Shown piece after piece: positions 1 to 61,800 of a stretch of DNA of 64,000 nt. Within the stretch, counting starts at the first letter, position 1. Each line of letters begins with the position of its first letter. This stretch comes from Acidobacteriota bacterium. GTDB lineage: Bacteria > Acidobacteriota > JAAYUB01. Where the stretch lies: assembly GCA_040768985.1 (NCBI GenBank), contig JAXGLX010000002.1, positions 1,856,637-1,920,636 on the forward strand, given 5' to 3'. The notes below the pieces were generated by a model. The model did no database searches and was not told the DNA's origin. It saw only the letters and a program-made list of their open reading frames with translations. The position numbers and the translations under genes are program-made.

Positions 1-1418
1 CACTCATACACGTTGCCATGGGTGTCGTACAGGCCCCACGGATTGGGCAGTTTCGTCGCCACCGCCGCGGTGGCTCCGGGATCGTTGGCGCAGAACACCG
101 CCGCAGACTCCAGATTCTGGAGCACTCCAGTCACACCACAAAGATCACAGTTTTCGGTGGCTAAGTATGGCTCGTCGATCCAGAATGGCGAAGTCGTGCC
201 CGCCCGGCAACAGTACTCCCACTCGCCTTCGGTCAGCAACCGGTAACCGTCGGCGTCGAAGTCGCAGTAGCACGGCCCGGCGGTGTAGTTGGTGGAGTCG
301 ATGGGGACGGTGAAGCCGGCGTTCGCATAGTAGCACCGGGTCAGCCCCTGCTGCACCGAGAGCAGATTGGCGAACAGCACCGCTTCTTGCCAGGAGACTG
401 ACTGCACCGGATTGTGAATTCCTGATCCGTAGGCGGTATCCGTCGGATCGGCCGGCAGTGCGGGCTGCACCGCCCGCAGGGCCGACCACATCTGTCGGGT
501 CAGCTCGGTGGCCATCACGGCCAGGTTGCGGGTCAGGGTGTGGGTGAATTGATCCTCATCCCCCTGGCGGCACGACTCGCCGGTCGGAGATCCCTGGGTG
601 AACGTGCCCGCCGGGATGTACATCAGGCCGCCCACGATGGAATCGATGACGTATAGATCACCCGGCTGGAGATCCGTCTGCACCGCCGTCGGCGCCGCGT
701 TGAAGAAAACGTGGCGATCGTTGGCCTGGTCCCAGGTGATGGACATGGGAGTCGGAAATACCACCTGATCGCTGCTGATCCGGACCATATCGAAATCGTC
801 GACACCCACCCCCGCCCAGATCCCCTCCGAGATGGAGACCAGCTTGGTGTGGGGGGCGATCGTCATCGGGCCGCTGTCCCCCACCTGGACACCCAGGCGG
901 AATGCCTCGAACCGGACCGCCAGGGATGACTCCAAGGGATTCATCACGGCGATGCCGGTGCCGATGAAATGCTCCTGGATGGTGTTGGGCAGCACGTACT
1001 CCCACGCCAGCGTCTCCTGCATGAAAAACTCGCACAGCGACAGGCTGTCGCCGTAGCGGTACGACAGTTTCGGCCGGACCCGCTCGCTGGCCGCGGTGAC
1101 GGCGCAGGTGCCTTCCACTGCCGCAAGCACGATTTCACCCGGGGCCGGCGAGTAGCCGGGGTCGGCGGGCAGGACCACGCTGGTCGCCGCATGGGCGCCC
1201 ACCGGGTACTCGGTGGATGACACCAACTGTCCGTTGGTATTCCAGATGGTCAGGGTGAAGGTGTGGGGCGCATCGTCGTTGTTGTACACGTCGATGCGGT
1301 TGATCCACGGCGACAGCGCGGTGACATGGGCCCCGTAGTACGTGGCGGCCGCCAGGGGCGCCGCGAGTGCTGTGGCGATGACCACGCTCAGCAGAAACCG
1401 GTGCATTCCGAGTTTCAT
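1..1418 (-). CDS. Formylglycine-generating enzyme (FGE/SUMF1) domain protein, C-terminus cut by window edge; N-terminal signal peptide plus ~200-aa unknown domain
   Basis: Minus-strand frame runs off position 1 and is therefore absent from the ORF track. It translates to ...SVSWQEAVLFANLL...GYRLLTEGEWEYCCRAGTTSPFW...NPWGLYDTHGNVYEW, the hallmark FGE-sulfatase motifs. ATG at 1418..1416 with a GGAGGAGG RBS 9 nt upstream. N-terminus MKLGMHRFLLSVVIATALAAPLAAA is signal-peptide-like. Confidence 0.8.
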   Translation of the reverse strand, partial: MKLGMHRFLLSVVIATALAAPLAAATYYGAHVTALSPWINRIDVYNNDDAPHTFTLTIWNTNGQLVSSTEYPVGAHAATSVVLPADPGYSPAPGEIVLAAVEGTCAVTAASERVRPKLSYRYGDSLSLCEFFMQETLAWEYVLPNTIQEHFIGTGIAVMNPLESSLAVRFEAFRLGVQVGDSGPMTIAPHTKLVSISEGIWAGVGVDDFDMVRISSDQVVFPTPMSITWDQANDRHVFFNAAPTAVQTDLQPGDLYVIDSIVGGLMYIPAGTFTQGSPTGESCRQGDEDQFTHTLTRNLAVMATELTRQMWSALRAVQPALPADPTDTAYGSGIHNPVQSVSWQEAVLFANLLSVQQGLTRCYYANAGFTVPIDSTNYTAGPCYCDFDADGYRLLTEGEWEYCCRAGTTSPFWIDEPYLATENCDLCGVTGVLQNLESAAVFCANDPGATAAVATKLPNPWGLYDTHGNVYE

Positions 1419-1439
1419 AACATGAACCTCCTCCATGAA

Positions 1440-1930
1440 AGGTGAGCTTTGATCGCTCCGCCTGTTGTACCGATTGAAAGATATGATTTGACGTGATTGT
1501 ATTGGGATAAATTTCCAAATGCAATCTTTCGATGAACGATAATGTCGGTGAATGGGTGAATGGGTAAATCGGTGAATGGGTGAGGGTTCGTTCTCGTAAT
1601 CGTAATTCGTAATCGTGATCGTGATCGTGATCGTAATCGTGATCGTCATCGAAGTTCAAGGTGAATGGGTGAATCGGTGAATGGGTGAATCGGGAGACGG
1701 GAGACGGGAGACGGAAGACGAGAGACGGAAAACAGAAAACGTTAGATGAACGGAAAAACCCGAACCGCGAGCCGCGAATCGCCAGCCCCGAACCGCGAAC
1801 CCTGAACCGCGAGCCCCGATTTCCGATGTCCGATGTCCGCTGATCGGGAACGAGCCTCGAGTCCCGAGCCTCGATCACGATTACTCAGTTACTTCCGAAA
1901 TTCTGCCAAAATTTGGCAAAATTATTCACC
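1440..1930. repeat. Composite tandem-repeat block: (GTGAATGG/GTGAATCG)n, (CGTAAT/CGTGAT)n, (GGGAGAC)n, (CGAACCGCGAGCC)n, (TCCGATG)n, GGAACGAGCCTCGAG module, CGATTAC; ends with a copy of the R-end motif ACTCAGTTACTYCCGAAATTCTGCCAAAATTTGGCAA at 1880-1930
   Basis: Tandem short-period arrays are directly visible. The same modules in the same order recur at about 12 other sites in this window. Confidence 0.85.
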
Positions 1931-2260
1931 GGTTTCTTCCCCCCCTGATCGCCCATCCCAACATCGACCGGCACCGTCTCCGCATTCACGACGAAAATAG
2001 CCAGGCGCAGCCCCGCGAACGCGGGGCAGCGCCTGGAAGGCCAAATAGTTGACGCGCCGCGCCCCGGGTACGGGGCGCGAAGAAAGCGTGTCGGCGGACT
2101 CCACGCTTCCCCGCGCCCCTGTTCAGGGGCGCGTCGGGTAAAAATACTCGGCTGTCCAGGCGCTGCCCGGCTGCGCCGGGCTGCGCCTGGCTATTGTCTT
2201 TGAAACTGGACGGGCTTGCCGAAGATCCAGGATCGCGGCACGGAGCTGAAGTTCACCATC

Positions 2261-2545
2261 ATGCCCCTTTGGTTCCGGCTCCGCCGGGTTGGGATCACGA
2301 TTACGATCACGATTACGAATCACGAGCACGAGTACGAGCACGATCAGGCAGCGGGCAGGCGGGAGGTACCGCGAGCGGCAGCCAGGGGCGGTCCGCCACG
2401 ACCCCGCGAGCCCCGAACCCCGAACCGCGAACCCCGATGTCCGCAGCTTGGGAACGAGCCTCGAGTCTCGAGCCTCTAGCCTCGATTCCGATTACGATTA
2501 CTCAGTTACTCCCGAAATTCTGCCAAAATTTGGCAAGATATCTGG
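2261..2545. repeat. Composite repeat block with L-end motif (TTGGTTCCGGCTNCGCCGGNTTRGGATYACGATTACGA) at 2261-2310 and R-end motif (CCCGAAATTCTGCCAAAATTTGGCAA, palindromic core TGCCAAAaTTTGGCA) at 2510-2545
   Basis: The L-end motif is repeated at 4193-4245 (direct) and 43930-43985 (inverted). The R-end motif is repeated at 1880-1930 and 44355-44400 (inverted). The R-end overlaps the 3' end of CDS 2498..4060. Confidence 0.8.
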
Positions 2546-4060
2546 TGATGGCGCGCAACGGTCCGACAAGGCAGGGATGAGGAGGAACTCTTGCAGGGTG
2601 ACACCGGCGGCGATGACTTTACGACCGAGGGCGGTGAGGTAGTACTTGTAGCAGCGGGTGGCTTTGCGAATCAGTCCGCGCAGCCGGAGATTTTTCAATA
2701 GTCGAGACACCTGACTGGTCGTGCCGCCCAGGAGTCGGCGGACGTGACGGTTGCGCAGGCCGTTGACCATGAACTCAGCGCGACCGATGGTGCGCAGGAG
2801 GCGCTGATCGTGAGCGGCGAAAAAGTTCAGTCCGCGATACCGGCGCCCCTGATGGGTGTGCGCGTGCGACAGGTCGTCGAGCCGGCGGGCCCCATCGGTG
2901 GGGTCCTCGAGCTGGGCCAGGAAGTCGAGATAACGGGCGTTGGCCGCCCGCATCACCGGCATCAGTTCGGGCAGCGAATAGATGTGTTTGCGAAAAGGGG
3001 CCTCCTTGCAGACGGTGTGACCGGTCCGCTGTACCACCGGACGGTGGTGCCGGAAGTAGGTGATATCATCGGCCACCGTCTCCACCCGCAAGATGCGGTG
3101 ATGCTTGTCATACATCTTGATGGAGACCGGCCAGAGGGTATGTTTGACACAGGTGCCCTGCGGTCGGGTGACGAACAGGGTGTCCACGGCGCCCTTGGGC
3201 AGATGGGGAAACTGGCGGCCGAAGAATGCCGTCACCCGCTCCGGCTTCGCCGCCAAGATCACCGCGCGCGACAGGTGCTCATAGACCTGGCGCAACGCGG
3301 TCGGATCGCGAAACACGATGTCCGTGGCATACTCCACCTGGGAAACGGACCAGTGATACGTGGTCTCGAACGTCTCCATCACCGGGCAGCAGCGCCGGGC
3401 ATACTCATCGAGCCGGGCATGCAACCGGGCGATCGCCCAGTCGTCCGCCAGCCGCTGCGCCGCGGCATAGTCGGCCACCTGATGGAAGGCGTTGTCCTGC
3501 AGCGTAAACGCCACGCCCGCCGCCGCCAGCCGGTGGGCCAGCCAGGCGTGGCCGTTGAAGCAGACCTGCAGCCGGTACGGGCACCAGGTCGGTACGCGCA
3601 GGTGCAGCAGGCCCAGTTCCGCATCCAGGAAATAGAAATAATAGTGCAGGCACTTGCCGCCCCGCACCGTCAAATAGGGCGCCCCACTCGGGCGGCGGTG
3701 CCGCACCTCGTACGACTCGCAGCGTTCCTCGGCCGACAGAATGCAGACCAGGCCCGGCGTGTCGCCTCGGGCCGCGCGGCGGGCCTGCGCCACCTCTTCC
3801 TTGCGCACGCTGGCCTTCCGGATGAACTCGATCGTCTGCCCGTTCGCCGCGGCCAGCGCCTCCGCGGTCTGTTTGATCCGGTCTCGCAACCCCATCACCA
3901 GCGGCAGATACTCCGTCAGCGGCCGTTGCCGGCTGTGCAGGTAGGCCGCCATCCCGTCCCGGTAGCAGATCGTCGGCAACGTGCCGAAGAGCAGAATCCG
4001 GTCGTAACACGACAGCACGCCGGCAATCTCGTGCGAATAGCGCGTCTGCAGGTTGCTCAT
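2498..4060 (-). CDS. Hypothetical 520-aa protein with a C-terminal winged-HTH-like region; cargo of a repeat-bounded putative mobile unit; family not recognised
   Basis: Long minus-strand ORF with no long competing frame. The last ~13 codons (ILPNFGRISGVTE) are encoded by the R-end repeat that also occurs at two other sites. The basic region LRNRHVRRLLGGTTSQVSRLLKNLRLRGLIRKATRCYKYYLTALG is HTH-like. No DDE, HUH or tyrosine-recombinase signature was recognised. Confidence 0.6.
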   Translation of the reverse strand: MSNLQTRYSHEIAGVLSCYDRILLFGTLPTICYRDGMAAYLHSRQRPLTEYLPLVMGLRDRIKQTAEALAAANGQTIEFIRKASVRKEEVAQARRAARGDTPGLVCILSAEERCESYEVRHRRPSGAPYLTVRGGKCLHYYFYFLDAELGLLHLRVPTWCPYRLQVCFNGHAWLAHRLAAAGVAFTLQDNAFHQVADYAAAQRLADDWAIARLHARLDEYARRCCPVMETFETTYHWSVSQVEYATDIVFRDPTALRQVYEHLSRAVILAAKPERVTAFFGRQFPHLPKGAVDTLFVTRPQGTCVKHTLWPVSIKMYDKHHRILRVETVADDITYFRHHRPVVQRTGHTVCKEAPFRKHIYSLPELMPVMRAANARYLDFLAQLEDPTDGARRLDDLSHAHTHQGRRYRGLNFFAAHDQRLLRTIGRAEFMVNGLRNRHVRRLLGGTTSQVSRLLKNLRLRGLIRKATRCYKYYLTALGRKVIAAGVTLQEFLLIPALSDRCAPSPDILPNFGRISGVTE

Positions 4061-4189
4061 GGGTCACCATCTGAGAGAAAGGAATACTCCGATTATAGGC
4101 GATGTGGACCGCATGGAAAATCCTGCCCGCAAGAGAATACATTCCCGGCCGAACGCCGAGAGGCTGATGATCAGCCTTCGAGATACAGA

Positions 4190-4325
4190 TAATGCTTTTT
4201 GGTTCCGGCTACGCCGGCTTAGGATTACGATCACGATTACGAATTACGAGCACGAGCACCCAACTCCTATCTCCTGTCTCCTCACTGTTCACCGTTCACT
4301 GTTCACCGTTCACCGTTTTACATAG
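4190..4325. repeat. L-end motif copy (4193-4245) followed by CGATTACG array and GGAGATAGGAGA / GTGAACGGTGAACAG arrays
   Basis: Direct repeat of 2261-2310 lying 135 bp upstream of the ATG of CDS 2498..4060; tandem heptamer arrays visible. Confidence 0.8.
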
Positions 4326-4391
4326 ACCTTGCGGGATGCCGGGATTTTAACTATACTTTGCTTTTGAATCGTTGTTGAACGGAGTTTAAAC

Positions 4392-4796: not shown

Positions 4797-4815
4797 GCGC
4801 CGCCCCAAACAGATC

Positions 4816-7205: not shown

Positions 7206-9461
7206 ATGCGCCAGATTCTGACTGTGTGCCTGATTCTCGCCGGCCTGCTGCTCTCGGCGCCGGCCGCGCCGCAGGGGGCCGAACCGGCCGCCCCGCCGCT
7301 GACCATCGACGAGGTGCTGAGCCCGGCGCACCGGACGGCGTTCCGGCTGCCGTCCTACTACTGGCTCCCCGGCGATCAGATCCTGCTGTTCGATTCCGGG
7401 AAGCCGGGCGCCGAACGCGGCCTGGAGCGCTACGACCCGGCCACCGGCGCGCGCACCCCGCTGCTGGCGGATCCGGCCGCGGCGCTGAAGGGGCTCAACG
7501 AGCTGCTGACCGCCGGCGGAGGGACGGCCGAGGAGCACCTGGGCGAGCCCCTGGAGCTGGACGCCGCCGGGAAGCGGGCCCTGCACCTGATCGCCGACGA
7601 CGTCTTTCTGCAGGACCTGGCCACCGGGGCTTTCCGGCGGATCACGCGCACGCCCGCCGCAGAGGCCGAGCCGCATTTCTCGCCCGACGGCCGGTGGGTG
7701 GCGTACCACCGGGAACACAACCTGTACGTCACCCGGCTCGCTGACGGCAAAGAGCACGCCCTCACCCGCGACGGCCGCGACACCCTGCTCAACGGCACCC
7801 TGTCCTGGGTGTACTGGGAGGAGATCTTCGGCCGGGAGGACCTGGGCTACTGGTGGTCGCCCGACTCCACGGCCATGGTGTACCTCAAGTCGGACGAGTC
7901 GCAGGTGCCGGTCTCCTACTTCCCCGACTACGAGCCGGCCACGCCGGCGGTGCACCGCCAGCGCTACCCCAAAGCGGGCGAGACGAACCCGTCCGTGTCG
8001 GTCTGGCTCGCCGAGGTGCCCGGCGGCAAGGCCCGCCGCGTCGCGTTCGCCGATCCCGAAATCGAGTACGTCGTGCGGGTGCACTGGCTCCCCCACGGCC
8101 GCAGCGTCGCCGTCCAGACCATGAACCGGGCCCAGAACCGCCTGAAGGTCTGGCTGGTGGACCGCCGCCGCGCGACCGCCCGCGTGATCCTCACCGAGGA
8201 GAGCCCCACGGTGGTGAGCATCCACGACGACCTGGCCTTCACCGCCGACGGCGCCCGCTTCGTCTGGGCCTCGGAGCGGGACGGCCGCAACCGGCTGTAC
8301 CTCTATGAGGTCAGCGGGAAGCTGGTCCGCGCGCTCACCCCCGCGAACCTGCTGGTGCGCGCCTCCAGCGGCGTGGCCTGGGTGCGGGGGGGCCTCTGCG
8401 CCCTGGACGAGGCCGGCGGCTGGGTCTACTACACCGCCACCGACGGCGCGCCCATCGCCCCGGCGCTCTACCGCTCGCCGCTGGCCGGTGGTGTCGCCGA
8501 GCGGCTGACCCGGGAGCCGGGCAGCCACCGGGTGGGCTTCAGCCCGTCGATGCAGTACTTCTTCGACGAGCATTCGTCCATGAGCCGGCCGCCGGGGCTG
8601 ACCCTGCGCCGGGCCGACGGCGAGGCGGTGCGCGTCGTGGCGGCGCCGGCCGTGGACCACGCCGCGAAACTGGGGCTGCTGTATCCCGAATTCCTCACCA
8701 TTCCGGCCGAGGACGGCTTCGCGCTGCCCGCGCAGATCCTCAAGCCGGCGGCGCTGGAGCCGGGCCGCCGCTATCCCGTGATCCTCTACGTCTACGGCGG
8801 GCCCAACGCCCCGGTGGTGGGCGACCGCTGGGGCCGCGACCTGCTCATGAACAATCTGCTGGTGCAGCGCGGCTACATCTGGATGGCCGTGGACAACCGC
8901 AGCGCCTCCGGCCTGGGCAAGGCGCTTGAGGACACCGTCCACCACAAGCTCATGAGCGGCGGCGAGGTGGCCGACATCGTGGCCGCCGTGCGCTGGATCA
9001 AGCGCCAGCCGTGGGCGGACCCGGACCGCGTGGGCGTGTGGGGCTGGAGCGGCGGCGGCACGTTCACCGTCCAGCTCATGAGCCAGAGCCGGGAGTTCCG
9101 CGCCGGCATCGCCGTGGCGGGCGTGTACGACTTCCGCTACTACGACTCCGTCTGGGCGGAGCACCTCCTGGGCCTGCCCAAGGACAATCCCGAAGGCTAC
9201 AAGGCCGGCGCGCCGGCCACCTGGGCCAAGAACCTGCACGGCCGGCTGTTCCTCGTCCACGGCCTGGCCGACGACAACGTCCATCCCCAGAACGCCTGGC
9301 GGCTGACCGACGAGCTCATCGCGGCGAAGATCCCGTTCGACCTGATGGTCTATCCGCGGCAGGGCCACGGCATCCGCGCCCCGGCCAGCTACCGGCACCT
9401 GATGACGGCGATGCTGGATTTCTGGAAGAGATGGTTGAAGGGAGAGAACGGTGAACAGTGA
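7206..9461 (+). CDS. S9 family serine peptidase (dipeptidyl-peptidase IV / prolyl oligopeptidase type), secreted
   Basis: Signal peptide MRQILTVCLILAGLLLSAPAAP; DPPIV-like N-terminal propeller region; catalytic GWSGGG (VGVWGWSGGGTF), Asp (HGLADDNV) and His (GHGI). GAGGAG RBS before the 7206 ATG. The upstream part of the 6156..9461 ORF is an in-frame extension over the M20 gene. Confidence 0.9.
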   Translation: MRQILTVCLILAGLLLSAPAAPQGAEPAAPPLTIDEVLSPAHRTAFRLPSYYWLPGDQILLFDSGKPGAERGLERYDPATGARTPLLADPAAALKGLNELLTAGGGTAEEHLGEPLELDAAGKRALHLIADDVFLQDLATGAFRRITRTPAAEAEPHFSPDGRWVAYHREHNLYVTRLADGKEHALTRDGRDTLLNGTLSWVYWEEIFGREDLGYWWSPDSTAMVYLKSDESQVPVSYFPDYEPATPAVHRQRYPKAGETNPSVSVWLAEVPGGKARRVAFADPEIEYVVRVHWLPHGRSVAVQTMNRAQNRLKVWLVDRRRATARVILTEESPTVVSIHDDLAFTADGARFVWASERDGRNRLYLYEVSGKLVRALTPANLLVRASSGVAWVRGGLCALDEAGGWVYYTATDGAPIAPALYRSPLAGGVAERLTREPGSHRVGFSPSMQYFFDEHSSMSRPPGLTLRRADGEAVRVVAAPAVDHAAKLGLLYPEFLTIPAEDGFALPAQILKPAALEPGRRYPVILYVYGGPNAPVVGDRWGRDLLMNNLLVQRGYIWMAVDNRSASGLGKALEDTVHHKLMSGGEVADIVAAVRWIKRQPWADPDRVGVWGWSGGGTFTVQLMSQSREFRAGIAVAGVYDFRYYDSVWAEHLLGLPKDNPEGYKAGAPATWAKNLHGRLFLVHGLADDNVHPQNAWRLTDELIAAKIPFDLMVYPRQGHGIRAPASYRHLMTAMLDFWKRWLKGENGEQ

Positions 9462-9652
9462 AGAGTGAGGAGACAGGATACAGGAGATAGGAGTTTAATG
9501 TATGTTATAGTGTTAAACTTAAGACAGGACTGTGTTCTACTATTTTGTGTGGTTGATTTGCAATTTCGACAGTTTGTATTTTTGACTATGATAAGTTGTA
9601 CTCGATTTAAACACTATTTTTTTTGAATCCGACGACACAGGAGGAATATTTG

Positions 9653-14464: not shown

Positions 14465-14765
14465 TTTCCCGCCCATCCTCCGTAATTCGTAATCGTGATC
14501 GTAATTCGTGCTCGAGGCTTGGGACTCGGGGCTCGAGGCTCGTTTCCAAGCTGCGGACATCGCGGTTCGGGGTTCGGGGTTCGGGGTTCGCGGTTCGGGG
14601 TTCGGGGTTCGCGGTTCGCGGTTCGCGGCTCGGGGCTCGGGGTTCGCGGCTCGGGGCTCGGGCTCGGGGTTCGCGGCTCGGGGTTTTCCGTTCAGCTAAC
14701 GACTTCCGTCTCCCGCCTCCCGATTCACCCATTCACCCATTCACCCATTCACCCATTCACCGGCC
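14465..14765. repeat. Composite repeat block in reverse orientation (CGTAAT, CTCGAGG, CGGACATCG, GGGGTTCGCGGTTCG arrays, GTCTCCC, TTCACCCAT arrays)
   Basis: Same modules as 1440-1930 in reverse-complement order. Confidence 0.8.
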
Positions 14766-18057: not shown

Positions 18058-18464
18058 GCGGCCGATTCACCACCAAGGCACGAAGGGCACAAAGAGATCA
18101 TCACCATTTGTCACTGATCATTTTTCATTGATCAATTGTCATTGGTAATTTTGGATGGTGAATCGGGAGACGTGAGACGGGAGATGTCAGACGGGAAGCA
18201 TCAGACAAACGGGAGGAATCGAACCGCGAAACCCGAACCGCGAGCCCCGATATCCGACGTCCAAAGTCCGATGTCCGGCCAGATCCCGGGTCCCAAATCC
18301 CAGATCCCATCCACAGCATGAACGAACTCTTTTCCAGATAGCCATTAAAATATAAGCAATCAACAATAACCAATAATCCGAAATGCCCAATGAAAAATGT
18401 CAGATGATCAATGACAAATGCATCTCTCTGTGCTCTTCGTGCCTTAGTGGTGAGAAGACCAAAT
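18058..18464. repeat. MITE-like unit: ~85-nt conserved 3'-end element at both ends in inverted orientation, flanking a composite tandem-repeat core
   Basis: 18069-18150 (CACCAAGGCACGAAGGGCACAAAGAGATCATC...GTCACTGATCATTTTTCATTG) versus the reverse complement of 18380-18460, each abutting the stop of one of the convergent genes. The core holds GTGAATCG, GGGAGAC, CGAACCGCGA and TCCGAYG arrays. Confidence 0.8.
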
Positions 18465-18872
18465 TCACTCGCTTGATTTGCGCGTGCGGCCCAGTTCCAT
18501 GGCCCGGACCACGACGAAGGCGATGAGCGCGAAGATGAAAAACACGAGCAGCATCCAGGCCACGCCCTGCATGGCGCCGATCACGGTGCGGTAAACCTCC
18601 AGCACCCAGCGGTCGGTGGTGAGCGCCAGGATCTGCGCATCCTTGCCCGTGCCCATGGGCGAGATGTATTTTTCCAGTTCCCAGATCCGAACGCCGCTGG
18701 AGATGCCGATCACCAGGATGGCGAAATCGAGGTAGCGCTTCCAGGCCACGCTGATCTCGTCGGCCATGATCCGCTGGAGGATGCTGCCGATGGGGCGCTT
18801 GAACACCACCACGAGAACCCCTGAGACCACCAGTGAGATCACAAACGTCACTGCGAGCAGGGTGAGAAACAT
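18465..18872 (-). CDS. Small integral membrane protein (3 predicted TM), unknown function
   Basis: 135 aa, strongly hydrophobic segments; preferred over the overlapping 18400..18930 frame. Confidence 0.5.
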   Translation of the reverse strand: MFLTLLAVTFVISLVVSGVLVVVFKRPIGSILQRIMADEISVAWKRYLDFAILVIGISSGVRIWELEKYISPMGTGKDAQILALTTDRWVLEVYRTVIGAMQGVAWMLLVFFIFALIAFVVVRAMELGRTRKSSE

Positions 18873-32027: not shown

Positions 32028-32470
32028 CATTCACCTCAGAGGGCACAGAGGACGCGGAGAAGATCATTCGTCATTGGTCATTGGTCATTGGTCATTTCTC
32101 ATTGGTCATTGTCAGAGGAGCGATGGGTGAATAGGTGAATGGGTGAAAAGGTGAATGGGAAGAGCTTATTTATTATTGCTCATTGACTATATTTTATTGG
32201 ATATTTAGAGCCGAGTCGGGTTTTGCCGGGATCCGGGAGGCGGGAACTGGGACCTGGGAACCGGGACCTAGGAACTGAAACCCGGGAACTAGGACCTGTG
32301 AGCTGGGGGCGAGATCCAGGCCCCAGAACCAAGGTCCCAGATCCGATATCCGAAGTCCGATATCCGAAGTCCGATGATCGGGAACGAGCCTCGAGTCTCG
32401 AGCCTCGATAACGATGACGAGCACGATGAACTCTCAACCCTCAACCATCAACCATCAACTATCAACCGAT
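32028..32470. repeat. 3'-end conserved element (diverged, GTCATTGG array) plus reverse-orientation composite repeat block
   Basis: 32030-32110 starts at the MFS stop; followed by GTGAATRGG and, in reverse, CTCGAG, TCGGACATCGGAT and GGTTCCCAGGTCC arrays. Confidence 0.75.
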
Positions 32471-32482: not shown

Positions 32483-33271
32483 ATGGCCATAACGATCGAT
32501 CTGAACGCGGATGTGGGCGAGCGCCCCGAAGCACTGGCCGACGGCTCCGAGGCCGCACTGCTCCGGCTGGTCACTTCGGCCAACATCGCTTGCGGCGGCC
32601 ACGCCGGCGACGCCGCCACCATGGCCGCGACGGTGCGGCTGGCGCTGGAGTCCGGCACCGCCATCGGCGCCCATCCCGGCTACCCGGATCCCCTGCACTT
32701 CGGCCGGGCGGTCCTCGCCATGGAGCCGGCGGCACTTCGCGCCAGCCTGCTGGCACAGATCCGGGCGCTGGCCGGGATCGCGGCCGCCGCCGGCGCCCGC
32801 CTGGCGCACGTCAAGCCGCACGGCGCGCTCTACAACCTGGCCACGCGTGACGCGGCGACCGCCCGCCTCGTCGCCGAAACGGTGGCGGCGATCGACCCGA
32901 AGCTCGTGCTGGTGGGGCTGGTCGGCTCCGCCCTGCTGGAGGCCGGACGGATGGCGGGACTGGCGGTGGTCGGCGAGGCGTTCGCGGAGCGGCGCTACGA
33001 GGCGGACGGGACGCTGCGCGATCGGTGCCACGACGACGCGTTGGTCCGCGATCCGGCCGAAGCGGCGGCCCAGGCCGTCACCATCGCCCGCGACCGCCGG
33101 GTGACGGCCGTCGACGGCACGGTGGTGCCGGTGGACGCCCGCACGCTGTGCCTCCACGGCGACTCCCCCGGCGCCGTGGTCATCGCCGCCGCGGTCCGCC
33201 AGGCGCTTGAGCGCGCCGGCGTGGTTTTAGCGCCGTTGAGAGTGAACGGAGAGGAGATAGGAGATCGGTGA
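32483..33271 (+). CDS. pxpA: 5-oxoprolinase subunit A (LamB/YcsF family)
   Basis: IDLNADVGE...SANIACGGHAGD...HVKPHGALYN. The last ~9 codons (VNGEEIGDR) are encoded by the repeat array. Confidence 0.85.
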   Translation: MAITIDLNADVGERPEALADGSEAALLRLVTSANIACGGHAGDAATMAATVRLALESGTAIGAHPGYPDPLHFGRAVLAMEPAALRASLLAQIRALAGIAAAAGARLAHVKPHGALYNLATRDAATARLVAETVAAIDPKLVLVGLVGSALLEAGRMAGLAVVGEAFAERRYEADGTLRDRCHDDALVRDPAEAAAQAVTIARDRRVTAVDGTVVPVDARTLCLHGDSPGAVVIAAAVRQALERAGVVLAPLRVNGEEIGDR

Positions 33272-33530
33272 GTCGGTGAATGGGTGAATGGGTGAATCGG
33301 TGAATGGGTGAATCGGTGAATGGGTGAATGGGTGAATCGGTGAATGGGTGAATGGGTGAATCGGTGAATGGGTGAATCGGTGAATGGGTGAATCGGTGAA
33401 TGGGTTGTGAGGGGGATTCATCAATTATGAGAAGACCGATCTCCGATGTCCGATGTCCGATGTCCGATGTCCGCGTCATGGGAACGAGTCTCGAGCCTCG
33501 AGTCTCAATGACGAGCACGATTACGATTCG
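33250..33530. repeat. Composite repeat block: GTGAATGG/GTGAATCGG array (12 units), TCCGATG x4, GGGAACGAGTCTCGAGCCTCGAG, ACGATTACGATTCG
   Basis: Direct reading; same module order as 1440-1930. Confidence 0.85.
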
Positions 33531-34869: not shown

Positions 34870-35002
34870 GTTGCTGTCACTTGGCCATTACGAATTACGA
34901 TTACGTCTCACGATCACGACAGCCTTGCCCCCTAACCCAGATCCCCCGTCTCCTATTTCTCCTATCTCCTATCTCTTATCCCCTATCTGACAAGTAGCAT
35001 CA
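34870..35002. repeat. Partial composite repeat (ATTACG array, GGAGATAGGAGA-type array in reverse)
   Basis: tacgaattacgattacg...tctcctatttctcctatctcctatctcttatcccctatc. Confidence 0.7.
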
Positions 35003-36478
35003 CATCGTGCACAAAAAAATAGCATGACATCGTGCACAACAACGGTCGCATATTGCATCACATCGTGCCACCGCCCTCGGTTTTAAGGCCATCAAATAGC
35101 GGGACATCGTGCACACTGATCACTTGGCCCACCGCGCCCGCTCGAACCCACCGATGAAGCGAAGGCAACGGCTCGGTATCATCTCCGCAATAGGAGGTGC
35201 CCATGAGCCAAGAAGAAGACATCCGGCGGCTGGCCGTGGAGCGGGTTCAGCAGGGTGAAAGTGTCCGCTCGGTGGCCACCAGTATCGGCAAGAGTCGGCG
35301 GTGGGTTTATAAATGGTTAGCCCGGCGGGCAAGTGGCGCGGCGGACTGGATGCAGACCCGATCCCGGGCGCCGAAGCGGCCCGCCGTACGCATCGACCCG
35401 GAAACCAAGGTGTTGATTGCGCAAACCCGGCTGGCGTTAGAGCAGACCAAATATGCGCAGAAAGGCGTCATGGCCATCCAATGGGCCTTTCGAAAACAAA
35501 ATCGGCCGGTTCCTCCGGGATGGCAGATCAATCGGGTTCTGAAGAGTCAGGGCTTGGTCCATCAGTCCGTTAAAAAAGAGGCCAAAGGCGTGGCATATCC
35601 CGTCGTCGGGATGGCAGTCCACGGATCGGTGCAGGAGATGGATCTGTGGGGAGCCGCGGTACATTAAAGGCGACGGGCGTTTTTACTCGTTGAATGTGAT
35701 TGATCGACACAGTCACACCGTCTGTCTGAATCCGATTCGAAGCAAAGCCAGACGAAGCCGTCGCCGCTGCCCTGGCCGCGTCTTGGGAACGGATCGGAGT
35801 CCCCGATTATCTCCAGATGGACAACGAGCTGAGTTTCCACGGCTCCAATCGGTATCCACGTTCGTTCGGCCACGTCATCCGCTTGTGTCTGGCGAATCGC
35901 ACCATCGCGGTGTTTGTGCCGATCGGCGAGCCTTGGCGGCAAGGGGTCGTGGAGCGCTTTCATGACGTGTTGGATCGGCTGTTTTTTCGGCAGACCGCAT
36001 TCACTTCATTTCGGCATCTGTGTGCGGAGAGCCGCGTGTTCGGGCGTTTCACAATGCCAGCCACTGCTATTCCCGGTTGAACAGGAAAACGCCCAACATG
36101 GTGAGAACTCAAGACGGCGAGCAGGGCGGACCGCATCAGATTGCGGGTCCGGTTCCGGCTAAAGCGCCGCTGGACTATGGCAGATCTGGCTGGTCCGATT
36201 CATTCGCAGCGATTTGATCCTGGATGTGTTTTCGGAAAAATTCAAACTGCCCAAGGTGGCCCAGTATACGTACGTCGTTGCCAAGATCGATCTCTTGGAG
36301 CAGATGCTGTATGTCTGCGACTCGAACGGGCACATGATCAGCCGGAAGGGATACATCAGATCGTGACTGTGTGCACGATGTGTTGCTATTCGGCCACCCT
36401 TAAAAACTCCCCCCTCGGGGGAGTTGTGCACGATGTTAGTGAACATCGGTCATCAGAAAAGTTGTGCACGATGTGATG
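35003..36478 (+). mobile_element. Degenerate IS copy 2 (same HTH + rve/DDE transposase family, frameshifted) flanked by inverted clusters of a 13-nt repeat CATCGTGCACAA; outer 20-bp TIR TAGCATCACATCGTGCACAA
   Basis: Left: 4 direct copies of ~ACATCGTGCACA at 35003-35125. Right: 3 copies of TTGTGCACGATGT at 36368-36478. Internal frames 35197..35667 (HTH, ...QEMDLWG), 35690.. (YIKGDGRFYSLNVIDRHSH) and 35817..36080 (LQMDNELSFHGS...) reconstruct a DDE integrase-core gene broken by frameshifts. Confidence 0.6.
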
Positions 36479-36529
36479 CTATGCAACACCTATCTCCTAT
36501 CTCCTATCTCCTAATTCTCCGTTCACTGT

Positions 36530-37294
36530 TCACTGTTTACCCGCTATCCGCGGATAGAGCCGGGCGGCGCAGTCGGGGCAGATGCCGTGGCTGAACTCGG
36601 CTTCGGAGTGCTCGCGGATGTACTGCTCCAGTTGGTTCCAGGCGCCGTTGGAGTCGCGGATTTTTTTGCAACTGGCGCAGATGGGAATGATCCCCCGCAG
36701 GGTTCGGATCTCGGCCAGGGCTTTCTCCAGCTTGCCGCAGAGCTCGACCTTCTCCATCTCGGCCGTCTTGCGGCGGGTGATGTCCAGTTGGGCGCCCAGG
36801 GCCCGCAGCGGCCGGCCGTCGGCGCTGCGGGCGACGATGCGGCCCCAGTTGAGGATCCAGCGCCAGCTGCCGTCGCGGAAGCGGAGCCGGTGCTCCACCT
36901 CGAACGCAGGCGTCTCGCCGCACTCGTGGCGGCGCGCCGCCACCTCGACCGCGGGCAGGTCGTCGGGGTGGATCAGCTCCTTCCACGCGGTGGCATGATC
37001 CTCGATGTCGCCGGGCGAATAGCCCAGCATTTTCGCCCAGCTGTCGCTGCGGACCACCCGGCCGGTGGTGAAGTCGTGGTCCCACCAGGCCAGCCCCGCG
37101 CTTTCCACGGCCATGGCCAGGCGCTCCTGCGCGTGGAATGCCTCCTCCAACAGGGCGGGATCGACATCGCCGACCGCCGTGTCAGAGCCGAGTGCCGAAA
37201 CAATGGTTTCGAGCTGGTCCACCCGCGCCATCAGCCGGTCGATTTCCGCCGCCAGCCGTTCCCGTGTGCCTAAAAGGGTCTGCATCCGCCCCAT
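36530..37294 (-). CDS. PAS domain sensor protein with C-terminal Cys-rich module (IPICASCKKIRD...W...YI..HS...FSHGICPDC)
   Basis: N-terminal coiled coil; PAS (WWDHDFTTGRVVRSDSWAKMLGYSPGDIEDHATAWKELIHPDD...WRWILNWGRIV); conserved CxxC...HGICPxC C-terminus; ATG at 37294 with a GAGGAG RBS. Confidence 0.75.
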   Translation of the reverse strand: MGRMQTLLGTRERLAAEIDRLMARVDQLETIVSALGSDTAVGDVDPALLEEAFHAQERLAMAVESAGLAWWDHDFTTGRVVRSDSWAKMLGYSPGDIEDHATAWKELIHPDDLPAVEVAARRHECGETPAFEVEHRLRFRDGSWRWILNWGRIVARSADGRPLRALGAQLDITRRKTAEMEKVELCGKLEKALAEIRTLRGIIPICASCKKIRDSNGAWNQLEQYIREHSEAEFSHGICPDCAARLYPRIAGKQ

Positions 37295-39719: not shown

Positions 39720-39930
39720 CGGCCGCCAGTCTTTCACCACAAAGACACGAAGGACACAGAGGAATCCAGTTGTCATTGATCATCTGACATTTTTCATCGG
39801 GCATTTCGGATTATTGGTTAGTAATCGTAATTCGTAATCGTAATCGTGCTCGAGGCTCGAGCACGAATTACGAATTACGAGCACGAAATCCGAAGTCCGA
39901 TATCCGATGTCCGATGTCCGATGTCCGTCC
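39720..39930. repeat. 3'-end conserved element (39725-39815) plus composite repeats (CGTAAT, CTCGAGGCTCGAGC, TCCGATATCCGATGTCCG)
   Basis: CACCACAAAGACACGAAGGACACAGAGGAATCCAGTTGTCATTGATCATCTGACATTTTTCATCGGGCATTTCGGATTATTGGTTA is near-identical to the element at 18380-18464 (reverse complement). Confidence 0.8.
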
Positions 39931-43859: not shown

Positions 43860-44400
43860 CATGGCTCGTTCCCGTAACGCGGACATCGGACTTCGGAAAT
43901 CGGATATCGAATGTCGTGCTCGTAATTGAAATTCATAATCGTAATCGTGATCCTAAGCCGGCGTAGCCGGAACCCATTGATTGAAAGGATCTGGAATTCA
44001 CTCGTCCAATCAGTCGTTCATCGATCGGCCCAGCGCCTGAGACATGCGCACGATCCGCCGGTTGGCAACGTGGAGGTACCGCGAGCGGCAGCGAGCGGCG
44101 CGACAGCCCACTCGGCACGCCTGACCCCAGTTGCCCAACCACTCTGTCCGTGCCGCTTGAATGCCCGTCCGGTCGTCAAAGGGCCAACCATCGCCGCTGG
44201 GTCGGCAACGACACACCCGGTCGCGTGACACGCACTACAGTCAACGTGATGGAATGGTTTCGTGGCGTCGGGACATCAAGGCGGCTGGCCCTTCGCGCCG
44301 CTCGCTGCCGCTCGCGGTACCTCCCGTCTGCCGGCTGCTTGATCATGCTCATGGCTTCAGTCAAAAGATCTTGCCAAAAATTGGCAGAATTTCAGGAGTA
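43860..44400. repeat. Miniature (MITE-like) deletion derivative of the 2.5-4.25 kb unit, inverted: L-end motif at 43930-43985, R-end motif at 44355-44400, and a 31-bp perfect inverted repeat pair (44072-44102 / 44294-44324) inside
   Basis: Reverse complements of the L and R motifs found around CDS 2498..4060. GGAGGTACCGCGAGCGGCAGCGAGCGGCGCG and its exact reverse complement are 191 bp apart. ORF 44161..44784 ends with a degenerate QKILPKIGRISGVTDY copy of the 520-aa protein C-terminus. Confidence 0.75.
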
Positions 44401-44732
44401 ACTGACTACCGGAGACCCGAGGCCGGGCCGCATCGGCTGCCGGTTCCGGCCTCGTCTCAGCCCGACTTCCAATTCCGCTTTTGGCCTGACCCGTCACGGT
44501 GGCGACCCTGTGTTCGCGTGGAGAAGAATTTTCAACTGGCGAAATCGCCTCCAGCCGCGCCGTTCGAGGTGCATCTCCCGCCCATGACAGCAGACAAGCT
44601 TTCCGCCATGTGGTACGATGACCGCATTCCACGTGTTTGTGTTTCTGATCCGGTTTGCGCCTTGGATATATTCGGAGGTTGTATTCTCCATCGCCACGTG
44701 CCGGGATACGATCGCCAACAGAGAGGTGGGCC

Positions 44733-48539: not shown

Positions 48540-48600
48540 GGTGTTTGATTGTGCTTCCCCCAATTCACCGATTGACCGATTCACCGATTCACCGATTCAC
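48540..48600. repeat. ATTCACCG array (reverse GTGAATCGG-type) at a convergent gene junction
   Basis: caattcaccgattgaccgattcaccgattcaccgattcacag. Confidence 0.7.
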
Positions 48601-56534: not shown

Positions 56535-56880
56535 AGCGGGGATCGTGATTGTAAACGTGATCGTAATCGCAATCGTGATCGTAATCGCAATCGTGATCGC
56601 AATCGTGATCGCAATCGCAATCGAGGCTCGAGACTCGAGGCTCGTTCCTGGAACGCGGACATCGGACGTCGGAAATCGGAAATCGGAAATCGGACCTGGG
56701 ACCTGGGTTCTGGGCCCTGGATCACAGAACCCAGATCCACGTACCCATTCACCCATTTACCCATTCACCCATTTACCCATTCACAATTCGAAATGCTCAA
56801 TGACAAATGAAAAATGAAAGATGATCAATGTAAGACTCCTCTCCCGATTCACCTATTCACCTATTCACCCATTCACCTAT
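56535..56880. repeat. Composite repeat block (CGTGATCGTAATCGCAAT array, CTCGAG module, GGACATCGGA, GGAAATCGGA x3, GGACCTGGGA, TTCACCCAT arrays) plus 3'-end conserved element (56780-56830)
   Basis: Direct reading. The minus-sense of 56780-56880 contains TTGATCATCTTTCATTTTTCATTTGTCATTGAGCATTTCG right after the stop of the beta-barrel gene. Confidence 0.8.
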
Positions 56881-57717
56881 TCACCAGATCTTAATCCTAT
56901 AGCTCACCCCCGCGCTGAGCGATGTCTCGGAGACAAACATGCCCTGCACGGCGAACGACCAGCCGTCGCCGAGGTCCACCTCCACGCCCGGCAGCACGGC
57001 GAGGTTCTTCTCGCGGGTGGTCCTGCCGTCGTAAGCGACGGTGATTTCCGGATACGGGGCGTACACCCAGAGGCCGTCCAGGTCGAAGTGGGAGTGGCAG
57101 TAGCCCAGGCCGACATACGGCGCGAACCGTCCGACGGGCCAGACCAGGATTCCTGACGCGCTGGCCTGCCAGTACGTGACTGTGTCATCGGTCGCCCAAC
57201 CGAGTGATTCGGCGGAGCTGCCGTCGGGCGCGTAGACCCAGTCCCCGACATCGCGCGACGTGTAGCGGAGGTATTTCACCGCGGCGATGAGCTCGGGCCC
57301 CGCCGCATGCTTCCACAGCAGGGCCTTGCCGCCCACGTACCAGAGGAACCGACGCCCGACGGTTCCATCCCAGTCGTTGACGCCCGCCTCTTCGCTGAGC
57401 CATCGACCACGGCCCGTCAGGCCGAGGCCGGCGTTGACGTTGACGCGGTCGTGGAGTCCCAGCGCCAGGGTTACGAGGAATTGTTCATCGTCCTCGAATT
57501 TGGCATCCTTCACATCGGTGGCCGAGGAATCGTCCCAGTAGGTCCGGGCCAGTTCGTAGTGCTCGAAATCCTGGAGGAAAATAAATCCGGCCTGCAGCCC
57601 CACCCCCAGATGCCCCTTGGGCACCAGACGGACGGGATTGCCGACGTCCTGGGCGGCGGCGGCAGTCAGGCAGGCGGCACCGATCAGCAGCAACAGCAGG
57701 TGGTGTTTCACGGTCAT
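56881..57717 (-). CDS. Outer-membrane beta-barrel protein
   Basis: Signal MTVKHHLLLLLIGAACLTAAAAQD; alternating amphipathic strands; C-terminal ...SAGVSYRIKIW aromatic terminus. Confidence 0.6.
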   Translation of the reverse strand: MTVKHHLLLLLIGAACLTAAAAQDVGNPVRLVPKGHLGVGLQAGFIFLQDFEHYELARTYWDDSSATDVKDAKFEDDEQFLVTLALGLHDRVNVNAGLGLTGRGRWLSEEAGVNDWDGTVGRRFLWYVGGKALLWKHAAGPELIAAVKYLRYTSRDVGDWVYAPDGSSAESLGWATDDTVTYWQASASGILVWPVGRFAPYVGLGYCHSHFDLDGLWVYAPYPEITVAYDGRTTREKNLAVLPGVEVDLGDGWSFAVQGMFVSETSLSAGVSYRIKIW

Positions 57718-61549: not shown

Positions 61550-61800
61550 CTCAAGTATGGTGACGATTACGATTACGAATGACGATTACGAGCACGACAC
61601 TCGATATCCGAATTCCGATGTCCGATGTCCGATGTCCACGTTACGGGACGAGTATCGAGCCTCGATTACGATCACGATTACGATTACGATTACGATTACG
61701 ATTACGAATTACGAGCACGAATCACGCCCCCGCCGCCCCCCTCCTCACTCCTATCTCCTAACTCCTCACTGTTTACTATTTACTGTTCACTGTTCACTCC
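61550..61800. repeat. Composite repeat block (CGATTACG array, TCCGATG x3, CGAGCCTCGATTACG, GGAGATAGGAG / GTGAACAG variants)
   Basis: Direct reading. Confidence 0.8.

Follow-up and report, generated by a model that had tools for sequence, protein, structure and literature searches.

Among the described bacterial intergenic repeats, the BOX elements of Streptococcus pneumoniae are built as boxA–boxBn–boxC and the bacterial interspersed mosaic elements (BIMEs) of Escherichia coli as mosaics of repetitive extragenic palindromic (REP) or palindromic (PU) units, the modules being 35-60 nt long and BOX and REP being defined by their stable hairpins; BIMEs are in turn used as insertion targets by the insertion sequences (ISs) IS1397 and ISKpn1. 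In eukaryotes, the foldback elements have termini composed of tandem repeats. Simpler arrays are represented by the STRR heptamers of cyanobacteria, which were reportedly described by Mazel in 1990. Abundant intergenic heptamer arrays of unknown function are found in cyanobacteria, Xanthomonas, Burkholderia and Beggiatoaceae (PMC4692102, PMC4679880; both cite Mrázek 2007 and Mazel 1990), and they include GGGNATC G-quadruplex heptamers in Xanthomonas and Nostoc (PMC4692102) and TAACTGA repeats in Beggiatoaceae (PMC4679880). The subject here is a family of composite repeat elements, made of short tandem arrays in a conserved order, which is dispersed between the genes of a 64,000-nt stretch of DNA (the window) from an uncultured acidobacterium with a GC content of ~65% (42%-74% across 2-kb bins). 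A first-pass annotation, made from the letters of the window, had regarded the density of these blocks as unusual. The density is indeed high, with 13 independent element sites in the 64 kb of the window and dozens more in contigs of related metagenome-assembled genomes (MAGs), although the abundance of intergenic heptamers is itself known in other bacteria; the unusual feature is the ordered, dispersed composite, rather than heptamer abundance as such.

Arrays were located with Tandem Repeats Finder and by direct reading, and eleven unit families were annotated on both strands: A (GGTGAATS), B (TCGTRA), C (GGGAGAC), D (CGARCCS), E (TCCGAWR), F (CGAGYCT), H (TCATTKR), I (GGGAMCY), J (TCAACCA), K (GGAGATA) and L (GTGAACR). 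There is also a degenerate module, M (CACGAAGGGCACAAAGAG). A prime denotes the reverse complement of a unit, and a number after the letter gives the copies. The canonical element is 300-420 bp long and has the structure (GGTGAATS)n (GGGAGAC)n – spacer – (CGARCCS)n (TCCGAWR)n – 11-nt junction – GGGAACGAG(CCTCGAG)n (CGATYA)n – spacer – (TCTCCTA)n (TCACYGT)n. In letters, the recurring full form, taken over the window together with 38 related loci, reads A–C–50-70-nt spacer–D–E–11-nt junction–GGGAACGAG+F–B'–spacer–K'–L', in which H, I, J and M are optional modules and the core order, D, E, junction, GGGAACGAG anchor, F and hexamer array, is fixed. The canonical order is found in genomes L010, L018, L008, L019, L017, L047/L048 and L071, and intact elements of 300-420 bp are present in L047, L010, L008, L019, L017 and L071.

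The order of the modules can be assessed from the oriented adjacencies that recur among blocks, these being B–F' (seven times), E–F (five), K'–L' (four), C–D (three) and B'–K' (three). Counted over all blocks, the oriented adjacencies that they have in common amount to S=48 as against 7.6±2.6 when order and orientation are permuted within blocks, and 0 of 5000 shuffles reach 48. Moreover, self-BLAST of the window gives multi-module collinear alignments of 1660-1884 with 14761-14501 (261 bp), of 33348-33528 with 56784-56601 (190 bp) and of 32313-32427 with 56723-56602 (122 bp, 82% identity). Taken together, the module-order statistic and the collinear alignments therefore confirm the observation of the first-pass annotation that the blocks share one module order in both orientations.

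The sequences between the arrays are equally informative. In all, 69 anchor-like matches were gathered, a few of them chance matches in coding sequence; GGGAACGAG precedes an F array, sometimes a D array, and the E-to-F junction has the form TCCGC-N5/6-GGGAACGAG. Upstream of the anchor this junction occurs in four recurrent subtypes, TCCGCGTTACG, TCCGCATGGCG, TCCGATGATCG and TCCGCAGCTTG, each of them at several unlinked loci and three of the four in both MAG species, while a 28-nt C-to-D spacer, GACGGGAAGCATCAGAYAAAC, is kept at three non-orthologous sites with six mismatches or fewer. The recurrent junction subtypes and the conserved spacer are subfamily signatures of the kind that a copied element should show. 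In other words, the proposal that the blocks have a common descent or arose by copying, as opposed to independent slippage, is borne out, since non-repeat junctions are conserved among unlinked copies and in related genomes and since intact 300-420 bp elements exist.

The most instructive of the intact copies is that of L047/L048, which reads L1 K2 A18 – E6 – junction – F3 B'8 – K'7 L'3 and makes up the entire 393-bp gap between convergent LamB/YcsF and PAS genes, with both stop codons at the ends of the element. Its flanks are 100% identical to the window across a 289-bp block, a 789-bp gene and 2 kb beyond 36489, and its termini have in common an inverted sequence of ~25 bp, GTGAACGGAGA..GGAGATAGGAGAT. 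From this copy it is evident that the GTGAACAG/GGAGATAGGAGA blocks (GGAGATA modules), formerly set apart as a variant subfamily, are not a separate family; they are the far terminus of the same element, inverted relative to the GGTGAATG/GGGAGAC end. The ends of the element consist of inverted GTGAA-type and then GGAGA-type arrays, such that either end, read towards the interior, is rich in G and, read away from it, rich in C. Indeed, 49 of 110 block ends are G-rich inward and only 4 of 110 show the reverse (p=7e-11). The terminal inversion is uneven, in that many copies pair an 8-mer end with a 7-mer end or miss one end; a 77-nt inverted repeat is present at 18067-18143/18453-18382.

The possibility that such arrays are products of assembly, which had been named as grounds for doubt, was examined by retrieving the same locus through exact-protein look-ups in JGI, ENA, NCBI-MAG and Logan assemblies. 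The arrays are base-for-base equal in these independent assemblies: the 56.5-kb block is identical in three of four others, the fourth having two point changes and one indel, and in up to six assemblies there is 100% identity over the 32-kb block and an 18-unit A array. Where the flanks are 99.7-100% identical the arrays are 100% identical, the 18-unit array included. The arrays are real, not assembly artefacts, and are not hypervariable at the strain scale. An identical LamB/YcsF protein is also recorded, as a protein match in cluster records, on a contig of 5,003,342 bp. Short-read contigs from several samples (L049-L053) all stop inside the (GGTGAATS)18 array; other contigs of ~900-950 bp hold the LamB/YcsF gene alone. 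Long arrays of this type systematically fragment short-read assemblies of this wastewater/digester lineage.

The distribution of the family is narrow. A 22-nt F-anchor pattern, GGAACGAGYCTCGAGYCTCGAG, was scanned against 185,579 species, each represented by one genome, and gave 38 stretches in only 3 MAGs. Two of these MAGs are titled Acidobacteria/Acidobacteriota bacterium (sludge digester; wastewater set) and the third is titled Verrucomicrobiota; one of the two matched contigs of the latter, L012, is 98% identical to window 4228-5417 and is therefore probably mis-binned from the same lineage as the window. Identity of the window to one anchor-bearing MAG is ~96.5% over 11 kb, and to the other ~86-91%. 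The anchor has no match in viral contigs, and a phage origin was rejected, the four viral contigs that contain (GGTGAATS)3 being unrelated. One of these four, an IMG/VR contig of 44% GC (L044, 9364-9772), has a composite of comparable make-up, in which the arrays are (CGTTGTC)n, (GGGTGAAT)n and (GGTCGTT)n, with a higher-order periodicity of 23-51 nt; the 8-mer GGGTGAAT is in use in a very different organism.

Within the window, the unit-family annotation gives 70 arrays with a total of 2,191 nt, which are intergenic and fall into 15 clusters; first-order Markov surrogates of the window contain 0-3 arrays (~2). The periods are 6, 7 and 8 nt with up to 18 copies (Tandem Repeats Finder), and copies per array range from 2 to 18 without a favoured number, there being no preference for four. 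Arrays make up 14% of the non-coding DNA and 3.4% of the whole window, and only 57 array bases lie inside called coding sequence. The clusters are as follows.

Clusters 1-5: 1545-1884; 2293-2501; 4223-4317; 9446-9493; 14487-14762
Clusters 6-10: 18105-18420; 32062-32467; 33252-33528; 34894-34988; 36489-36537
Clusters 11-15: 39770-39927; 43880-43952; 48563-48600; 56541-56885; 61563-61798

Arrays of period 6, 7 or 8 are present at every position at which the first-pass annotation had placed a block. The cluster at 36489-36537 was overlooked, and some limits require correction: 1440-1544 is ordinary upstream DNA, a non-autonomous mobile element of 408 bp has its ends at 1885-1930 and 2261-2292, which are not array modules, and several of the blocks are pieces of single elements divided by insertion sequences. 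Read in this way, the copies in the window are the following.

1545..1884, plus strand: composite element, A5 B10 A4 C5 – spacer – D9 E3 – junction – F3 B'2, collinear over 261 bp with 14761-14501
2293..2501, plus strand: composite element, left part, B'9 – 57-nt spacer – D5 (E1) – junction – F4 B'3
4223..4317, plus strand: right part of the same element, B'3 – spacer – K'3 L'5, an inverted terminus 74 bp upstream of a B12-binding-domain gene
9446..9493, plus strand: L3 K4 terminus, giving the last codons and the TGA stop of an S9/DPP-IV peptidase gene (7206-9461)
14487..14762, minus strand: composite element, in minus-strand reading A5 C2 – D19 – junction – F5 B'3; the plus strand shows 18 heptamers GGGGTTC/GCGGTTC
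18060..18470, plus strand: composite element between convergent genes, a 77-nt terminal inverted repeat (CACCACCAAGGCACGAAGGGCACAAAGAG and a TCATTKR array) around (A1) C3 – conserved spacer – D4 E4 I'2
32030..32467, plus strand: composite element, M H7 A3 – spacer – I9 (GGGAMCY, G-quadruplex motif) E5 – junction – F3 (B') J5
33252..33528, plus strand: canonical element, left part, (L1) K2 A18 – spacer – E6 – junction – F3 B'3, beginning at the LamB/YcsF stop codon
34894..34987, plus strand: middle of the same canonical element, B'4 – spacer – K'4
36489..36537, plus strand: right terminus of the same canonical element, K'4 L'3, overlapping the stop codon of a PAS-domain gene (36530-37294, minus strand)
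39729..39927, plus strand: composite block between convergent genes, M H5 – B5 F'2 B' – E6, with a near-perfect hairpin CGTAATCGTGCTCGAG-G-CTCGAGCACGAATTACG
43865..43952, minus strand: truncated element, in minus-strand reading B'3 – E4 – junction GGGAACGAGCC
48563..48600, minus strand: solo A5 array, supplying the TGA stop of a gene at 48597-48995 (minus strand)
56541..56885, minus strand: composite element, in minus-strand reading A5 (C1) H6 A5 (I) E6 – junction – F3 B'14
61563..61798, plus strand: composite element, B'6 E5 – junction – F2 B'8 – spacer – K'3 L'5

Three sets of these pieces are single elements. The parts at 2293-2501 and 4223-4317 are divided by an IS of 1,721 bp and are contiguous, as an empty site, in L041, L012 and L072-L078; 9446-9493 and 14487-14762 belong to opposite ends of a single element whose B' and K' are separated by a 5-kb low-GC island; and 33252-33528, 34894-34987 and 36489-36537 are, by comparison with the intact L047/L048 copy, one element divided by two insertion sequences. 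The element at 32030-32467 stops 15 bp short of the LamB/YcsF start codon and is 100% identical in six other assemblies, a stretch of the block at 39729-39927 is 89% identical to 18367-18459, and the solo A5 array at 48563-48600 has a degenerate orthologous array in L007.

The elements are themselves hosts to mobile DNA. Five of the six insertions in the window of ISs or of miniature transposable elements with inverted repeats (MITEs) lie inside arrays, which occupy 3.4% of it, and the sixth is an ISL3 copy in the low-GC island (~11041-12458). The insertions associated with arrays are listed here.

1885..2292, plus strand: MITE1, a 408-bp derivative of the 1,721-bp IS without an open reading frame (ORF), in a CGATYA hexamer array, with ends TCAGTTACTTCCGAAATTCTGCCAAAATTTGGCAA … GGTTCCGGCTCCGCCGGGTTGG
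2502..4222, minus strand: the 1,721-bp IS, in a hexamer array, with a 520-aa ORF at 2501-4060 (minus strand); the site is empty in L041/L012
33529..34886, plus strand: IS#1, ~1.36 kb, in a B' array, with terminal inverted repeat GGGCCAAGTGACGGCAACCGCGGAACGC and IS481-like helix-turn-helix ORF fragments
34988..36488, plus strand: IS#2, 1,501 bp, in a K' array, with TG…CA ends, inverted repeats containing GCATCACATCGTGCACAA and a 6-bp duplication CCTATC
43953..44405, plus strand: MITE3, a 453-bp ORF-less derivative of the 1,721-bp IS, adjoining a B array on one side only; a homologous copy is in L071

IS#1 and IS#2 are different insertion sequences, both with IS481-type helix-turn-helix ORFs that are apparently fragmented (in IS#2, a helix-turn-helix/leucine-zipper ORF at 35197-35664). 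Both are missing from L047/L048 where the flanks are 100% identical; they are polymorphic and were, therefore, inserted very recently. The derivatives of the 1,721-bp IS are 400-460 bp long and have the same ends, with further copies at ~5215-4850 in L007 and 3705-4003 in L071. A copy 98.9% identical to MITE1 occupies another site in L033 (~7330-7770), and the interior of MITE1, 1960-2200, is occupied by GC-rich nested palindromes such as GCCAGGCGCAGCCCCGCGAACGCGGGGCAGCGCCTGG and CGCGCCCCGGGTACGGGGCGCG. MITE3 contains an internal inverted duplication as well as a segment that is 89% identical to the spacer of block 2293-2501, from which it follows that DNA has been exchanged between IS derivatives and array elements.

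The 1,721-bp IS merits separate description. Its TAA stop (2498-2500) and the last codon of its ORF overlap the flanking array. In the ten contigs that were read, every junction of this IS that is present lies in a B array (…CGTAAT(T)C/CTAAGCC…AACTGA/GTAATCG…, with slashes at the junctions), with at least four distinct upstream and at least five distinct downstream flanks; in this lineage the IS is specialised on the hexamer array, (TCGTAA/GATTAC)n. Four of five copies have TTAC as their left flank, any duplication being ambiguous as the target is a 6-nt repeat. The ends of the IS are unlike each other, each having a subterminal hairpin, and there are no terminal inverted repeats. The 5' end CCTAACCCGGCGTAGCCGGAACCAAA is retained by homologues from other organisms that are 50% identical, their copies lying outside arrays, and no duplication is visible in L068. 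The 520-aa protein, which is recorded in 152 blocks of the collection, has more than 5,000 homologue clusters of ~507 aa, nearly all on contigs of 1.6-2.5 kb. Apart from a C-terminal winged helix, searches of Pfam, NCBIfam, PHROG and PADLOC gave no family for it. The acidic residues D20, E112, D189, D247 and D318 of the protein are invariant. An AlphaFold model is confident (pLDDT 85, pTM 0.80), and PDB sequence and Foldseek searches gave nothing at E<0.001, returning only MarR-type winged helices and faint TBP-like matches; the modelled secondary structure would correspond to two TBP-like β-α-β4-α repeats. IS200/IS605- or IS91-like transposons are the systems that might be compared with it, from which it differs in the absence of HUH or TnpB matches, its own ends being unlike, hairpin-bearing and free of terminal inverted repeats; assignment of the protein as an HUH tyrosine transposase (Y1/Y2) or TnpB was rejected, as no family, PDB or Foldseek match supports it. 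The 1,721-bp IS may be an undescribed IS family, and its protein leads to a large family of proteins without annotation, for which mobile elements are the likely source.

The low-GC island (~9500-14480, 42-50% GC), where the GC content of the window is lowest (~9.5-14.5 kb), encodes a secreted protein of 492/500 aa with weak DUF4874/DUF4832 matches and a class I methyltransferase, and is interrupted by the ISL3 copy. In the 96.5%-identical MAG the island is present and the ISL3 copy is not. As an autonomous partner of the composite elements the island was rejected, since it encodes the secreted 500-aa protein and the methyltransferase and no transposase.

Comparison with related genomes gives a picture of elements that stay in place and are rebuilt. 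In orthologous gaps of related species (~86-91% nucleotide identity) the element is retained and its module content is not: at the 56.7-kb site the window has A-(C)-H-A-I-E-F-B' as against A-C(10-14)-spacer-D-E-F-B'-L' in two relatives (L010, L018), and the 39.7-kb site has 200 bp in the window as against 1.1 kb, with extra modules and a MITE, in a relative. The 4.8 kb of window 43806-48567 is swapped for 0.5 kb in a related MAG (L007 324-824), with array blocks at both boundaries; the replacement encodes a small zinc-ribbon protein, and the segment in the window comprises a MITE, an ORF of 625/651 aa and a protein of 589 aa whose tandem repeats, of 78 bp (26 aa, HEAT-like), lie at 47151-47447. 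The block upstream of 4392 is where synteny with window 1-4400 breaks in L071-L078, genomes that are 96.7-98.6% identical across shared genes: on the upstream side of the B12-binding-domain gene, L072 and L073 have other genes and L071 has the gene of the window with rebuilt blocks. The breakpoint is a MITE/B' (hexamer-array) junction between two composite elements. The arrays, then, mark synteny breakpoints as well as IS landing sites.

A more distant relative, L054, in which LamB has 63% aa identity and synteny is conserved, carries 7-8-nt arrays of different units, and its gap orthologous to that of MFS–LamB also contains M-like arrays in inverted arrangement. A foldback of 113 bp, made of inverted (TGAACGT)n arrays, separates two of its genes whose counterparts in the window and in L056 overlap by 4 bp; on both sides of it stands GATC, which may belong to a degenerate unit. 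To judge from this comparison, the foldback is a candidate insertion between the two genes, and a likely one. Its small foldback elements of inverted heptamer arrays are the following.

7495-7617 of L054: small foldback element of inverted heptamer arrays
9820-9975 of L054: small foldback element of inverted heptamer arrays
18799-18896 of L054: small foldback element of inverted heptamer arrays

The general phenomenon thus predates the genus, with other units in L054, and the set of units found here is genus-level. Intact, split, truncated and orthologous copies together offer a natural series for the rates of slippage and recombination of 6-8-nt repeats.

With regard to their position, the blocks reach to within a median of 9 bp of 3' gene ends, often provide the stop codon, and keep ~130 bp away from 5' gene ends. 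An association with gene 3' ends, which the first-pass annotation had put forward for checking, is nevertheless not specific: the gaps are divergent, convergent and tandem in 9, 9 and 14 cases, and orientation in tandem gaps is 8 as against 6. GTGAA arrays hold TGA in all frames. A rule that the A end abuts 3' ends in the sense orientation was rejected as circular, since outer arrays always read GTGAA inward and sense arrays make stop codons. In structure, 8 of 10 blocks have folding z-scores of -3.5 to +2.7 over both strands, no better than shuffled sequence, and a general hairpin or REP-like structure was rejected on these scores. Only 18060-18470 (z -5.3, -9.6) and 39720-39930 (z -5.5, -4.2) are strongly structured, and both lie between convergent genes and have explicit inverted repeats. 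A scan of a 20-kb stretch (30-50 kb) found no consensus terminators in blocks and one marginal promoter match (33452-33424, 9/12), and an Rfam gathering search and a tRNA scan of the whole window found no matches. In composition, G is abundant and C scarce in the arrays of A, C, K, L and I, and those of D, E, F and J are rich in C; the most extreme C-rich/G-poor 60-nt windows, five on the plus and six on the minus strand and with as few as 2-3 G per 60 nt, are all within blocks. The window has four canonical G-quadruplex motifs, every one of them in a block and within 4 of the 15 array clusters, and CTCGAG palindromes are regularly spaced in F arrays. Restriction-site avoidance was rejected, CTCGAG and GATC giving no signal (CTCGAG observed/expected 0.82 in the window), as was a CRISPR array, the 6-8-nt units standing head to tail without spacers and with no Rfam match.

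How these features are best explained can now be considered. We think it somewhat probable that the blocks are copies and fragments of one lineage-specific, non-coding, non-autonomous mosaic repeat family, MITE/BOX/BIME-like in kind, which is largely neutral and changes by slippage and recombination; the family is probably selfish or neutral. Its spread would have been by the copying of whole or partial elements, either through transposition in trans or through ectopic recombination seeded by shared arrays, after which copies would drift through replication slippage, unequal exchange, nested insertion and truncation. Most copies would then be neutral intergenic filler, growing until a stop codon or a promoter is reached, and, because they are repetitive and also dispensable, to which the concentration of insertions in arrays testifies, they act as safe landing pads for insertion and as recombination breakpoints. 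Several points weigh against this. No target-site duplication of a whole element is demonstrable, as the ends lie in arrays and the boundaries are ambiguous, and none is clear at the A/L-end flanks; no cognate transposase with matching ends was found, the three IS types inside blocks having unrelated ends. No two copies in the data are nearly identical, 86-89% over ~95 bp being the highest identity between unlinked ones, and there is therefore no sign of recent transposition. The two termini often differ in unit (8-mer GGTGAATS as against 7-mer GTGAACR), whereas ends bound by a transposase do not usually do so. Elements occupy the orthologous sites across the whole genus, and in part those of the distant relative, a pattern as compatible with long residence and gene conversion as with transposition, and ectopic recombination could account for much of the spread. 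Lastly, the near-invariance of GGGAACGAG(CCTCGAG)n and the strict polarity of the ends could reflect a selected function, not neutrality.

If there is such a function, the end polarity suggests where it may lie. The elements could be bidirectional transcription insulators or Rho-dependent terminators, the outward C-rich arrays serving as Rho utilisation (rut) sites, a proposal that we regard as possible, though unlikely. An outgoing transcript would carry 40-140 nt of C-rich, G-poor, unstructured RNA, (CAUUCACC)n, (GUCUCCC)n, (UAUCUCC)n or (UGUUCAC)n, with the effect that transcription by read-through or in the antisense direction would end before the neighbouring gene is reached, and the G-rich entry arrays could cause pausing via G-quadruplexes or R-loops. 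In keeping with this, the most extreme C-rich/G-poor 60-nt windows of both strands are in blocks despite the GC content of ~65%, the ends are polarised 49 to 4, blocks adjoin stop codons (median 9 bp), the arrays are without secondary structure, as rut sites are, the anchor is highly conserved and the four canonical G-quadruplex motifs are all in blocks; moreover, with no consensus intrinsic terminators in the blocks of the scanned 20 kb, another mode of termination would be needed. All of this support is compositional, however, and the polarity follows automatically from inverted GTGAA-type termini, with sense arrays creating stop codons and thereby biasing the apparent ORF ends. Elements also tolerate insertions of 1.4-5 kb in their middle and occur in divergent promoter gaps, while many intergenic gaps are without an element and module content is not kept at orthologous sites. 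A wider proposal, in which the elements have been domesticated as bidirectional Rho-loading insulators, that is, as modular terminators tunable by slippage, and the 1,721-bp IS, inserting into their (GATTAC)n array, is a new insertion-sequence class whose protein of ~507-520 aa, from a family without a known transposase fold, appears to be made up of two TBP-like repeats and a winged helix, would place such a terminator class in a high-GC lineage whose scanned 20 kb held few consensus intrinsic terminators, and is a little more doubtful again. The polar, outwardly C-rich ends do at least provide a concrete hypothesis of Rho-dependent insulation.

Alternatively, the arrays might be structural or protein-binding DNA, either iterated sites for a nucleoid or regulatory protein or G-quadruplex/i-motif tracts comparable to the GGGNATC heptamers in Xanthomonas and Nostoc, with the order kept as the set acts jointly. 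The confinement of the G-quadruplex motifs to blocks (4 of 4), the resemblance of GGGAMCY and GGGAGAC to the G-rich heptamers of PMC4692102, the conserved anchor and the regular spacing of CTCGAG palindromes in F arrays are consistent with this. We consider it improbable, given that a canonical motif is in only 4 of 15 clusters, that copy numbers of 2-18 show no preferred value, that modules are freely lost, replaced and interrupted by ISs, that no candidate binding protein was identified, and that CTCGAG is not avoided elsewhere in the window (observed/expected 0.82). More improbable still is an origin as IS footprints, in which repeated insertion and excision with a 6-bp duplication would build the hexamer array, and possibly others, with flanking modules carried along by one-ended or read-through transposition. 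GTAATC does flank the 1,721-bp IS on both sides at most sites, the single comparison of a filled with an empty site differs by exactly one hexamer, and the segment of the MITE at 43953-44405 is 89% identical to the spacer of block 2293-2501; yet only the hexamer array fits, since IS#2 duplicates 6 bp in an array of 7-bp units and IS#1 ~3 bp, there is no duplication at 43953-44405 or in L068, hexamer arrays sit beside F in elements without an IS, and the other ten unit families and their order go unexplained. Independent slippage at each locus from common seeds, or artefacts of assembly, can be regarded as effectively excluded. Heptamer slippage is, according to Mrázek et al. 2007 (via PMC4679880, PMC4692102), common in some large high-GC genomes, and short-read contigs do break inside the long A array, but none of 5000 shuffles matched the order statistic, there is conservation of spacers and of non-repeat junctions, multi-module alignments extend to 261 bp, and identical arrays are found in independent assemblies from different samples and sequencing centres.

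A non-autonomous mosaic repeat family is the reading with which the comparison with known systems is best made. Our literature search, partial in its coverage, found no description of this composite family, of any dispersed element that combines some ten short arrays in a fixed order with inverted array termini, of equivalents in Acidobacteria(ota), or of compound microsatellites with a conserved order. Phase-variable contingency loci have short tandem repeats near genes, as here, but the present arrays are identical among strains (flanks 99.7-100%), lie mostly beyond stop codons and have no link with a gene class; contingency repeats were rejected on the 100% identity in six assemblies, with one indel in one of four assemblies at the 56.5-kb block. 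Closer are the long simple-sequence repeats (5-11 nt), which are likewise heptamer-dominated intergenic arrays of large genomes, placed near ORF ends, variable between species at the same gene pairs and in some units prone to form G-quadruplexes. The arrays reported there, however, are of a single unit, whereas here some ten arrays stand in fixed order with unique junctions and inverted termini. GGGNATC-type heptamers have at least four G3 tracts at a 7-nt period and prefer four units, for which there is no such preference here, the four G-quadruplex motifs falling in 4 of 15 clusters. With the STRR units (CCCCAGT, TTGGTCA, CAACAGT) of cyanobacterial hosts only TCATTGG, which we take to be a rotation of STRR2 TTGGTCA, can be matched, and the host MAGs here are Acidobacteria/Acidobacteriota.

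BOX and the BIMEs resemble the present elements in being short, non-coding, dispersed intergenic modules with a fixed order, variable tandem copy number and both orientations, and in serving specialised ISs as insertion targets. They differ in that the elements here are composed of 6-8-nt arrays that are mostly unstructured, have no sequence similarity to them and belong to a different phylum. To MITEs and foldback elements the likeness is one of size (300-420 bp), non-coding content, multiple copies, inverted, if uneven, terminal sequences, subfamilies and the possible insertion in L054 between translationally coupled genes, and the array termini recall the tandem-repeat termini of the eukaryotic foldback elements; in contrast to MITEs, the elements here have no target-site duplication that could be demonstrated and no partner transposase that was found, often have termini of unequal unit length and include no recent identical copies. 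If the reading as a mosaic repeat family is correct, the overall emerging picture is of a family built almost wholly of ordered microsatellite arrays which nevertheless has termini, junction subfamilies and nested parasites. Such a family would bridge simple-sequence repeats and MITE/REP-like elements, two kinds of repeat that are usually treated apart.

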